From Shigella phage vB_SflM_004, in the sequence record MK295205: a DNA stretch of 64,000 nucleotides. One strand, written 5' to 3'. Below the pieces are notes generated by a model. That model searched no databases. It was given only the letters and a program-made list of their open reading frames with translations, and was not told where the DNA came from. Position numbers and translations under genes: made by a program. This document shows positions 28,495 to 30,355 of the stretch, piece after piece; positions within the stretch are counted from its first letter, which is position 1; every line of letters begins with the position of its first letter.

Positions 28495-28810
28495 CTTAAG
28501 AGTCTTTCTAAGGGGTTTTTAAGTGATGCTCGGTAAGGTTCGGTTCGGTTGGGTGTGGTATGGTGGTGTAAGGTGGTGTAAGGTGGTGTCAGGTGTAGTA
28601 TGGTGCGGTGAGGTTCGGTATGGGTAGTTAGTCTCAGCTACATTAAAATGAGACTTACCTTTTTAAAAGGTCTTTAATAGGGTCTTTTAATAAGGTGATG
28701 TGAGGTGGGGTCTGGTCTGGTTTGGTAAGGCGCGGTCTGGTTTGGTAAGGTAAGGCTCGGTAGGATGTATGGTAGTAGCCACGTTAAAAATCTACAGGCA
28801 TCTAAGAAAT
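28495..28810. repeat. array of two ~150-bp composite repeat units with GGT-periodic tracts
   Basis: units share an AT-rich leader (aaaaggtctttaa.agggtcttttaat), a 60-70 nt tract of GGT-containing ~7-nt periods and a 3' hairpin motif (agtctcagctacattaaaatgagact). Confidence 0.7.
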
Positions 28811-28871
28811 CTTCTGTTGAGGGTTCTTTACAAACAACTTAACAATTAACTAAAGTGTGGAGCTAAATGCT

Positions 28872-29453
28872 ATGAAACTGTTAAATATCAAAATCACTGG
28901 TACTCGTCCTTTTCTGAGCCATGCAGATACTCTGTCAGACCCATTAAACCCTCTGACAAAATATCACAAGTCTCTGTCAAGTAAACGTAAAAAGACTGAC
29001 GAAGACTATGCTCTCTTAGCAGAAAGCCAACTGGTAACTTCTTGTTACTATGATGAGCAACTAGGTTTAGGTTTGAAGAGTGAGACGCTTGTAACTGGCA
29101 CTGGTGCAAAACTCAACAAACTTGGTAAGGTAATTGACCGAGCCATTATGCTGACAGATGTAGTCTTCCCAATGACTATTAAGAACTGTCCAGCAAACCC
29201 ACAAGAACTAGCTAAGAACCAAGACTTTATCTATGCGAAGTCTGTTAAGATTGGCACAGCACGAGTCATGAGCTACCGTCCAATCTTCCGTGACTGGTCT
29301 GTAGAATTTGGTTTGATGTTCGATGAAGAACAAATTACCAAAGAGGAACTCTTGATGGTTCTTGAAAATGCTGGTAACCTTTGTGGTGTAGGTGATTGGC
29401 GTCCACGCTTTGGTCGTTTCTCTGTAGAAGTTATTTCAGAAGGTAATGTTTAA
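28872..29453 (+). CDS. hypothetical protein
   Basis: 193 aa from ATG with GTGGAG SD; contains a 38-nt exact copy of the DNA polymerase 3' end ([13 protein letters not shown]). Confidence 0.5.
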
Positions 29454-29455
29454 TT

Positions 29456-29896
29456 ATGAATACAAAAGCATTAGCAGCAAAATTTAGTTACGGTGATACT
29501 GTATCACACTCTGAGATGGACACCTTCTTAGGTATTGTGAAGCCGACTTATCAAGGTGACATTGTTAAGTACGAAGATGAAATGAAAGCTTACGCACTTA
29601 CACGTCTAAACCGACTTGAGAAGTTTATTGAGAAGCTTCTTAAAGAAGAGAAGATTTATCTGGTCACTTCAATGGGTGTTGGTTATCGTGTGGTGGAACC
29701 TAAGCATCAAGCAACTATTGCAAAACGTAAAATGTCTGGTAAGATTGGTCGTGCTTTAAAACAAGCCACTCAAGCGATTGAGAATGTGAACACTATGGTA
29801 CTTAGCCATCAAGAACGTTCACGACTGATTGAACAGCAAAACCACTTAGCTGCTATGAAAGCTAACATTAATAAGCAACGTAGAAAACCTTTCTAA
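29456..29896 (+). CDS. hypothetical protein
   Basis: 146 aa, basic C-terminus; followed by a terminator. Confidence 0.5.
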   Translation: MNTKALAAKFSYGDTVSHSEMDTFLGIVKPTYQGDIVKYEDEMKAYALTRLNRLEKFIEKLLKEEKIYLVTSMGVGYRVVEPKHQATIAKRKMSGKIGRALKQATQAIENVNTMVLSHQERSRLIEQQNHLAAMKANINKQRRKPF

Positions 29897-29906
29897 GTTG
29901 ACTAGG

Positions 29907-29931
29907 TAGCCTCTTCGGAGGCTCCTTTTTA
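29907..29931 (+). terminator. rho-independent terminator
   Basis: hairpin GTAGCCTC-TTCG-GAGGCTCC followed by TTTTT. Confidence 0.65.
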
Positions 29932-30355
29932 AAAGGTCTTTAAACAGGGTCTTTTAATGAGGTAGTGTTCGGTCTGGTTAGGTCTGGTCTAGTTCGGTTT
30001 GGCAAGGTGGGGTTAGGTATGGGTAGTTAATCGGAGCTACATAAAAATTCGATTGCACCACTTAAGAGTCTTTAAATTATATTCGAAAGAGTATCTCATA
30101 GGGTTTTTAAGTGTTGTTTGGTATGGTACGGTTCAGTGGTGTATGGTTTGGTTCGGTGGTGTAAGGTGTGGTCCGGTAAGGTATGGGTAGTTAGTCTCAG
30201 CTACATTAAAATGAGACTTATCTTTTTAAAAGGTCTTTAAACAGGGTCTTTTAATGAGGCTGTGCTCGGTACGATTCGGTTGGGTCAGGTAAGGTTGGCG
30301 AGGTCAGGTCGGGTGCGGAAGGATGGCAGTAGCCTTATAAAAAATCTGCCAAATA
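29926..30355. repeat. array of three ~130-160-bp composite repeat units with GGT-periodic tracts
   Basis: same unit architecture as 28495-28810; both flavours of leader and 3' motif present. Confidence 0.7.

Follow-up and report, generated by a model that had tools for sequence, protein, structure and literature searches.

A probable type II VIPR locus with five vrRNA genes in Shigella phage vB_SflM_004, and a guide that matches an Escherichia coli satellite

The window analysed here is a stretch of 64,000 nt of Shigella phage vB_SflM_004 (record MK295205), a Felix-O1-like phage (Ounavirinae). Positions 28432-30350 of this window are almost certainly a type II Viral Interference Programmable Repeat (VIPR) locus of the SUSP1 clade, in which five vrRNA genes flank vipr and vap1. 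The locus carries every sequence-level hallmark of VIPR, and its gene order is the same as in SUSP1 (ligase - vrRNA(s) - vipr - vap1 - vrRNAs). VIPR is a CRISPR-like system of RNA-guided DNA silencing which was described in 2026 in two preprints of one group (10.64898/2026.04.26.720920; 10.64898/2026.04.26.720927). Its parts are a minimal RAMP (Vipr; RRM core, G-loop and thumb), an accessory gene (vap) and flanking vrRNAs, and each published vrRNA consists of 9-16 GGY/NN (YNNGG/GGYNN) pentamers with a 3' pseudoknot tail (10.64898/2026.04.26.720920; 10.64898/2026.04.26.720927). The system has already been described, and the finding itself is of a known kind and of low novelty. An earlier sequence-only reading of the window did not recognize the architecture from described phage elements. 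That statement is out of date, as the VIPR architecture was published in April-June 2026 and the structure is in the PDB.

The first gene of the cassette, vipr (28872..29453, + strand), encodes a 193-aa protein (ancestral RAMP) which matched PDB 36pp_D, 'SUSP1 Vipr protein', with a phmmer E-value of 3e-118. BLASTP showed 92 % identity to SUSP1 Vipr over the full length, and PDB 36pp is the cryo-EM structure of this near-identical protein. The product of the same open reading frame (ORF) and a known vB_SflM_004 protein share 100 % identity. Of the published contact residues, H17, K33, R39 and E71, the equivalents of K82/G87/K88 and R138, and the G-loop CGVGDWR are all kept. The second gene, vap1 (29456..29896, + strand), starts 3 nt after vipr and encodes a Vipr-accessory protein of 146 aa that is 98 % identical to SUSP1 YP_009199428. 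Both reading frames are intact.

Neither of the two enclosed proteins matched any Pfam family, and only families of unknown function were returned by PHROGs. In the case of Vap1, an exhaustive profile-free search recovered 246 distant relatives, which have no Pfam family in common. An AlphaFold2 model of Vap1, built on 72 relatives, reached a pLDDT of 96.6. When this model was compared with solved structures using Foldseek, nothing significant was found (best E-value 0.55) and the weak top matches were mostly winged-helix DNA binders; a profile search against PDB sequences gave no match. Thus, the label 'predicted DNA-binding protein' given to Vap1 in the preprints (10.64898/2026.04.26.720920 and 10.64898/2026.04.26.720927) rests on those preprints and on a weak winged-helix resemblance of the model, which is compatible with the label and does not prove it.

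The two genes are bracketed by composite units A (28490-28655) and B (28658-28795) on the upstream side and C (29924-30054), D (30056-30218) and E (30221-30350) on the downstream side, and all five are on the + strand, co-oriented with transcription. This arrangement had been proposed in the sequence-only reading, and it was borne out by the sequence and by repeat tools, which recovered leaders, tracts and tails shared among the units and, with Tandem Repeats Finder, tandem periods of 10, 20 and 25 nt. The same reading had described strand-asymmetric tracts in which GGT recurs about every 7 nt. The asymmetry held in a scan of the 64 kb, while the true period is 5 nt, with 12-19 pentamers per unit (60-95 nt). 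The tract of unit A, for example, starts with GGTAA GGTTC GGTTC GGTTG GGTGT GGTAT GGTGG TGTAA ... When both strands of the 64 kb were scanned for GGT in a 5-nt register, such tracts were seen in the five units alone, on the + strand. Genome-wide, 1.5 % of positions are GGT, but at the in-register GGY slot no triplet is commoner, and this enrichment is far above chance.

Among the 71 repeats in the window, strict GGY was observed in 57 and nGY in 70. When the repeats were pooled with those of related loci (491 pentamers from 38 parsed units of 13 phages, units B and E being parsed by hand owing to register shifts), the consensus was G (80 %), G (98 %), Y (T/C; 97 %), N, N, and the information content of the five positions was 1.08, 1.85, 1.34, 0.06 and 0.06 bits, respectively. 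The conserved GGY and the near-zero information at NN indicate that GGY is fixed and NN is free, in agreement with the preprints. The units are 70-78 % identical between related loci, and the flanking genes about 87 %. The nearest phage to the window by BLASTN is Citrobacter phage Moogle (93 %).

The absence of tRNA features noted in the sequence-only reading was confirmed by ARAGORN, which found no tRNA in the region. Its exclusion of CRISPR also stood, as no repeat-spacer array was seen. A CRISPR array was considered as a candidate and rejected: the region holds only tracts of 5/10/20/25-nt periodicity in composite units of ~150 nt, and the enclosed proteins lack a Pfam match. No match to Rfam 15 (4227 covariance models) was obtained for the whole window at the gathering threshold, nor at an E-value of 1 or lower in 28400-30420. 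The sequence-only reading had named a match to a known non-coding RNA family as a result that would speak against it. In substance such a match was found, namely to the vrRNA of VIPR, though Rfam 15 has no model for it.

The guides were scored as NNxNNx... on both strands. In the preprints, a target is accepted when at least 80 % of the NN bases are matched under a 1-nt skip rule with the skips on codon wobble positions; targets were found there for only 20 of the 41 SUSP1-clade guides, and the guides of this clade jointly point to a satellite, the baseplate protein of which has 72 % identity to a SUSP1 protein (10.64898/2026.04.26.720920; 10.64898/2026.04.26.720927). A satellite set was assembled by BLASTN with that SUSP1 gene; of the 5,426 complete E. 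coli genomes, 474 (~9 %) carry a homologue. All seven satellite loci examined are islands of ~10-12 kb that encode serine recombinases and have Felix-O1-like tape-measure and baseplate genes. The island in L014 (5400-17400) and its homologues in L015-L020 and L036 occupy several chromosomal sites (yciI/tonB, yecN/yecD, lafU/dinB, ymdF/wrbA and lpxL/mdtG). As a positive control, SUSP1 vrRNA1, 2 and 4 were scored against the satellite in L014 and matched 85-88 % of the NN bases, over a background of 0.55-0.70.

Guide D gave a first score of 0.75 at the homologous place in three satellites. When its central ten dinucleotides (20 specified bases) were compared with IMG/VR, five contigs were returned, of which four were satellites homologous to the one in L014. 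Against the satellites in L021-L024, 13 of 13 NN matched, and the maximum run of shuffled guides was 6. If the tail-adjacent AT is counted, 26 of 28 bases (93 %) match and AT is the sole mismatch; it probably lies outside the guide, because it is nearly invariant in tails of the PK type. The target, TTAATCACGTCTGGGATATTCTCAGGAAAAGTACCAAA, falls within an ORF of 235 aa, upstream of the tape-measure gene and antisense to it, and the skipped bases are all third codon positions of this ORF. The 81 nt around the target are at least 95 % identical in 178 E. coli genomes. In the chromosome of E. coli 90-3040, 26 of 26 bases matched. The satellite in this strain is decayed, with an IS3 insertion and frameshifts.

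As whole guides, A, B, C and E scored 0.55-0.71 and did not reach the 80 % criterion. The eight 3' NN of guide A match the satellite tape-measure gene, at a site where the homologous guide of phage dune matches 13 of 14, and the seven 3' NN of guide E match the satellite integrase gene. The best match of guide B, 10 of 14 NN with 8 in a row, was to intergenic satellite DNA upstream of the gene targeted by guide D; this is just over the shuffled maximum and under the criterion. For guide C, no target was found in the satellites or in a pattern scan of IMG/VR. IMG/VR contained no match to the ten central NN of guide B or of guide C, and a relaxed pattern of guide B returned satellites with a best score of 21-23 of 32. 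The sole pattern match of guide E in IMG/VR (L026) was rejected, as it is not a satellite and scored 0.68. No self-targets were observed in the window, where the guide maxima were 0.61-0.67. Guides of related phages also showed consecutive NN matches to the same satellite (13 in dune, 13 and 11 in Moogle, 11 in SPJ41, 10 in bumzen, and 9 and 8 in Sf18).

Satellites themselves encode vrRNAs (10.64898/2026.04.26.720920; 10.64898/2026.04.26.720927). In our set, the satellites in L019 (4054-4128, - strand) and L022 (455-519, - strand) have their own GGYNN tract and H-type tail and no vipr, and compensatory changes were seen in the stem of these tails. When the three downstream units of the window were compared with the 5,426 E. 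coli genomes by BLASTN, no match was found; BLASTN does not find the satellite vrRNAs because they are too divergent.

The function of the system was established in SUSP1 by small-RNA sequencing, ribonucleoprotein pull-down, binding assays, green fluorescent protein repression, phage defence experiments and cryo-EM, and programmable transcriptional silencing was demonstrated in SUSP1 and P. fulva (10.64898/2026.04.26.720920; 10.64898/2026.04.26.720927). Expression of the SUSP1 vrRNAs yields RNAs of ~100 nt, which are recovered together with purified Vipr (10.64898/2026.04.26.720920). If the SUSP1 mechanism is carried over to the present locus, each ~100-nt vrRNA would comprise GGYNN repeats and a 3' pseudoknot cap, and one Vipr protomer would bind per repeat to form a helical filament in which GGY is buried and the NN dinucleotides are presented. 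The dinucleotides would pair with double-stranded DNA, two bases being read and one skipped (NNxNNx...), and the gapped R-loop triplex so formed would block transcription, an effect that Vap1 would boost. Given the VIPR hallmarks and the perfect match of guide D to the satellite, the most likely role of the locus is silencing of the parasitic satellite during infection.

In the sequence-only reading, three functions had been suggested for the units. The first, an array of small RNAs, agrees with the identification of the units as vrRNA genes whose SUSP1 homologues are expressed. The second, a protein-binding or iteron array, was right in that a protein polymerises on the repeats and wrong in that it does so on RNA, not on DNA iterons. 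The third, the boundary of a mobile cassette, applies descriptively, as the units do border an insertion/deletion polymorphism (see below); by function they are not cassette ends.

The leader quoted in that reading, aaaaggtctttaa.agggtcttttaat (type II), fits units B, C and E only, and units A and D have a second, homologous leader (type I; CAyCACTTAAGAGTCTT..GGGTTTTTAAGTGwTG). In every unit the 12-nt leader arms form an inverted repeat that ends exactly at the repeat start. The inverted repeats span 28490-28528 in A (arms 28490-28501 / 28517-28528), 28658-28695 in B (28658-28669 / 28684-28695), 29924-29962 in C (29924-29935 / 29951-29962), 30056-30116 in D (30056-30067 / 30105-30116, with a 26-nt loop insertion) and 30221-30259 in E (30221-30232 / 30248-30259). 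The arms are 93.9 % paired, and five pairs are changed on both sides between the two leader classes (compensatory changes). Within the window, exact matches of the leader motif were confined to the three type II units, and the leaders were not flagged in a promoter scan; on these two grounds a general phage promoter was ruled out. The conserved leader may be a promoter/operator or a processing (biogenesis) hairpin.

The 3' motif, previously described as hairpin-like, is indeed structured, and it is better described as a pseudoknot: the tails fall into two sequence classes, both of which fit H-type pseudoknots. In the PK class (GGGTAGTTAGTCTCAGCTACATTAAAATGAGACT), 99.4 % of cells are paired and 3 pairs are changed on both sides (slid controls, 24-35 %); in the H class (..GTGG..GGTAG..CCAC..CTACC), 94.4 % are paired with 3 double changes, and in both cases the counts rest on few independent variant classes. 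This covariation supports the pseudoknot structure, short of proof. Units A, C and D have PK-type tails, E has an H-type tail and B has an H-type tail that departs at 3 pairs. Minimum free energy folding of a whole vrRNA revealed no more structure than in shuffled sequence (z=0.34), which is expected of a single-stranded tract that is bound by protein and carries a pseudoknot, and is therefore uninformative.

The individual vrRNAs, all on the + strand, differ in length and origin. The tract of vrRNA A (28490..28655) extends over 28527-28621 with 18-19 repeats, including a 10-nt internal duplication, and is followed by a pseudoknot tail at 28622-28655. In vrRNA B (28658..28795), ~14-16 repeats (28694-28770) precede a tail at 28771-28795 in which the pseudoknot arm and the 3' flank are replaced by patches derived from the DNA polymerase gene. 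The 12 repeats of vrRNA C (29924..30054) are located at 29961-30020, and its tail (30021-30054) is a pseudoknot variant with a covarying stem 2. The tract of vrRNA D (30056..30218) has 14 repeats (30115-30184) and a pseudoknot tail at 30185-30218; the whole vrRNA is identical to that of Moogle. Finally, vrRNA E (30221..30350) has ~13 repeats (30258-30324) and an H-type pseudoknot tail (30325-30350).

When the guides were compared with those of Moogle, Sf18 and dune, three were found to be chimeras. In guide A, the first six or seven dinucleotides are those of Sf18 vrRNA1 and the 3' part is that of dune vrRNA1. The 5' part of guide C is from a Moogle guide (Moogle-C), and its last repeats and tail variant are those of Sf18 vrRNA3. 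Guide E joins a 5' part of Moogle-E to a 3' part of Sf18 vrRNA4. Guide B is not a chimera. The breakpoints in A, C and E are inside the GGYNN tract, and the exchanged segment of C reaches into the tail. These sequence comparisons suggest guide turnover by in-register recombination between vrRNAs.

Several observations weigh against a functional VIPR locus aimed at the satellite. Only guide D, one of the five, reaches the 80 % criterion, and the target search for A, B, C and E left out the Shigella and Citrobacter pangenomes. Guides A, C and E are chimeras whose parental guides in the relatives target different sites, and the two parental sites of guide E are on opposite strands of the satellite integrase gene. 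Unit A exceeds the published range of repeats. The tail of vrRNA B is without one pseudoknot arm, and vrRNA E has a 4-nt repeat, GGTT, at 30293-30296 (GGTT then GGC, where Sf18 has GGTTG GGC), which puts the 3' half of the guide out of register. In Vipr, residues 66-79 of helix 1 (FVMNGEMIEACIKS) are replaced by a 12-residue stretch, making the protein two residues shorter, and M72, a Y3-pocket residue, is changed to T inside the patch. Vipr with this patch may be impaired. The 4-nt repeat sits in a G run and could be a homopolymer sequencing error as well as a real lesion. In view of the half, weak or missing matches, the chimerism of A, C and E and the damaged tail of B, all guides other than D may be weak or inactive.

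The alternative that takes up most of these points is that the locus is VIPR by descent and is decaying or largely inactive in this phage, with only vrRNA D intact. It is favoured by the patch in vipr codons 66-77, which among 117 Ounavirinae copies is present only in this Vipr, by the broken pseudoknot pairs in the tail of B, by the short repeat in E and by the lack of full-length targets for the chimeric A, C and E; in addition, about half of the Ounavirinae are without vipr/vap1, so that loss is common. However, the helix-1 patch is in frame and leaves both reading frames open, all catalogued RNA- and DNA-binding residues but M72 are kept, the GGY periodicity is intact in all five units, guide D is perfect and some of the lesions may be sequencing errors, given the G10 run and the disrupted ligase gene nearby. 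On balance, we regard decay as unlikely, while giving it real weight.

Three patches specific to the window were found at 28775-28785 (11 nt), 28798-28810 (13 nt) and 29066-29101 (36 nt), that is, just 5' of the tail of B, just 3' of it and in vipr codons 66-77, respectively. All are exact copies from one contiguous 66-nt stretch (25393-25458) at the 3' terminus of ORF 22762-25491, the DNA polymerase gene of the phage itself. The vipr patch is identical to positions 25419-25454 of the window and replaces 42 nt in frame. The patches are the only departures from Moogle in an otherwise 100 %-identical stretch of 330 nt. A multi-step template switch at microhomologies, or a library or assembly chimera, is a possible source. 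The DNA ligase gene region (27000-28350) also looks broken: residues 99-356 of the Moogle ligase align at 55 % in one frame, the N-terminal part was not recovered and a run of ten G is present at 28131-28140. This suggests a pseudogene or poor sequence quality, and the disrupted ligase and the G run call for caution about sequence quality at the locus.

The cassette is variable among relatives. vipr is present in 117 of ~230 Ounavirinae records. Felix O1, HMD-P8, JLBYU28 and S19cd are without vipr and vap1, but at the same site one or two intact units are retained (Felix O1, L004 3900-4050; S19cd, L011 2480-2790; HMD-P8, L012 2480-2630; JLBYU28, L013 2440-2590). Since the units are kept without the genes in these four relatives, the cassette is an insertion/deletion polymorphism bounded by units. 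No vipr or vap1 was found anywhere in the complete S19cd genome. The single unit of Felix O1 combines a type I leader with an E-type tail, the product expected of recombination between the outermost units. When the orphan guides were compared with the satellite, those of S19cd, which are 16 and 10 NN long, matched perfectly over 10 and 9 consecutive NN, and that of JLBYU28 gave a run of 10 of 11.

From these observations a wider reading can be proposed. New guides may arise by in-register recombination of vrRNAs of co-infecting relatives, with the GGY scaffold as homology; recombination between flanking units may have deleted vipr/vap1 in about half of the Felix-O1-like phages; and the orphan vrRNAs may be used with Vipr in trans or act as decoys. 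Taken jointly, a recombinant origin of guides, unit-mediated loss of vipr/vap1 with usable orphans and a hairpin or operator role of the leader make up a tentative proposal, which we think has somewhat less than an even chance of being right. Guide chimerism, orphan vrRNAs and the leader inverted repeat were not found in text searches of the two VIPR preprints. If the proposal is true, guide recombination would be VIPR's substitute for an adaptation module.

Two further explanations assign the units no guide function, and both are considered very improbable. According to the first, the tracts serve as sponges or decoys that capture a host RNA-binding protein of a ring-shaped or polymerising type (TRAP-type reading of triplets or CsrB-like titration). 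The 5-nt period of a triplet with 2-nt spacers is formally like TRAP sites, and the tract is no more structured than shuffled sequence. However, the adjacent gene is the solved Vipr, the repeat-binding protein itself, and the spacer NN carry target information, with a skip-rule match of 13 of 13 in codon phase that a sponge does not predict. The second, equally improbable, is that the units act as DNA, i.e. as iterons or an origin, as Chi-like GT-rich hotspots or as Rho-loading (ACCNN) sites on the opposite strand. The GGTGG motifs are reminiscent of Chi, the opposite strand is rich in C and poor in G, and the units mediate deletion or rearrangement of the cassette, as in the hybrid unit of Felix O1. 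On the other hand, the units are co-oriented with transcription and have their own leader and a structured tail with compensatory changes, the homologous SUSP1 units are expressed as discrete RNAs, and recombination between units is a by-product of their similarity and no evidence of function. Sponges (TRAP-/CsrA-like), Rho rut sites, Chi-like GGTGG, primase sites, G-quadruplexes and iterons had all been listed as candidates and were dropped after the match to the Vipr structure and the target of guide D.

Other features were recorded in and around the locus. A predicted sigma-70-like promoter 5' of the first vrRNA (28432..28459, + strand; CTGACT-16-TATACT) was called in the promoter scan; homologous sites are present in SUSP1 and Felix O1 (TTGACA-17-TATACT/TATGCT). 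A promoter-like site 5' of vipr (28827..28856, + strand; TTTACA-18-TAAAGT) is a consensus match only. After vap1 there is an intrinsic-terminator-like hairpin (29908..29934, + strand; AGCCTC-TTCG-GAGGCT and a T run), the T run of which overlaps the 5' arm of leader C. Directly 3' of the last vrRNA, a 19-nt inverted repeat (AAATAAGCTATAAAATCTG / CAGGTGTTATAGCTTATTT, 30351-30397) has its arms on either side of the -35 TTGACA in the promoter that belongs to the next gene (30443-30826). It is kept in Felix O1 and SUSP1 and could be an operator or a terminator. Outside the VIPR locus, Tandem Repeats Finder reported a dense cluster of 10-11-nt periodicity over ~1.3 kb (55790-57052), two arrays of 27-30 nt (37721-38054) and a 50-nt duplication (51819-51919).

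VIPR is a new mode of RNA-guided DNA recognition, and it has been proposed to predate CRISPR (10.64898/2026.04.26.720920; 10.64898/2026.04.26.720927). The window is a natural instance of it and therefore adds no new kind of system. It does provide an independent computational reproduction of the skip-rule code on a phage outside the experiments, with a perfect guide-target pair whose target occurs in about 200 E. coli genomes. In addition, the helix-1 replacement in Vipr, the 4-nt repeat, the damaged pseudoknot, the 19-repeat guide and the half-matching chimeras form a natural 'mutant collection' with which the tolerances of the system can be probed, and the locus offers leads on guide diversification and on the retention of vrRNAs in phages without Vipr.

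The locus is closest to the type II VIPR of Escherichia phage SUSP1, which is the model system of the preprints and belongs to the same subfamily as vB_SflM_004. Both loci follow the DNA ligase gene and precede the next conserved gene, the proteins are 92 % (Vipr) and 98 % (Vap1) identical, and the two loci share two leader types, two tail types, the GGYNN repeat, the E. coli satellite target family and the 1-nt skip rule with skips on wobble positions. They differ in the number of vrRNAs (five, 2 + 3, in the window; four, 1 + 3, in SUSP1), and the five guide sequences are all unlike the four of SUSP1. The 18-19-repeat vrRNA, the three chimeric guides, the 12-residue replacement in Vipr helix 1, one damaged tail and one damaged repeat also set the window apart. 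The satellite vrRNAs, in contrast to those of the window, which adjoin vipr, are stand-alone and must use the Vipr of the helper phage. TRAP sites in single-stranded RNA likewise have a conserved triplet with a 5-nt period and one triplet per protein subunit. However, the TRAP protein is unrelated, its triplet is (G/U)AG instead of GGY, and it forms a closed 11-mer ring instead of a filament, while the VIPR spacers carry DNA-recognition information. Class 1 CRISPR-Cas (Cas7 on CRISPR RNA) resembles VIPR, according to the preprints, in a RAMP/RRM protein with a G-loop and a thumb that polymerises along the guide RNA, in bases flipped out at regular intervals, in an R-loop on DNA and in an RNA handle that caps the guide. 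In contrast to Class 1 CRISPR-Cas, VIPR has no repeat-spacer array, no cas1/cas2 and no protospacer-adjacent motif, and its guide is non-contiguous, 2 of 5 RNA bases reading 2 of 3 DNA bases. In the present case the carrier is a lytic phage and the system is directed against a satellite; silencing in this type is nuclease-free.

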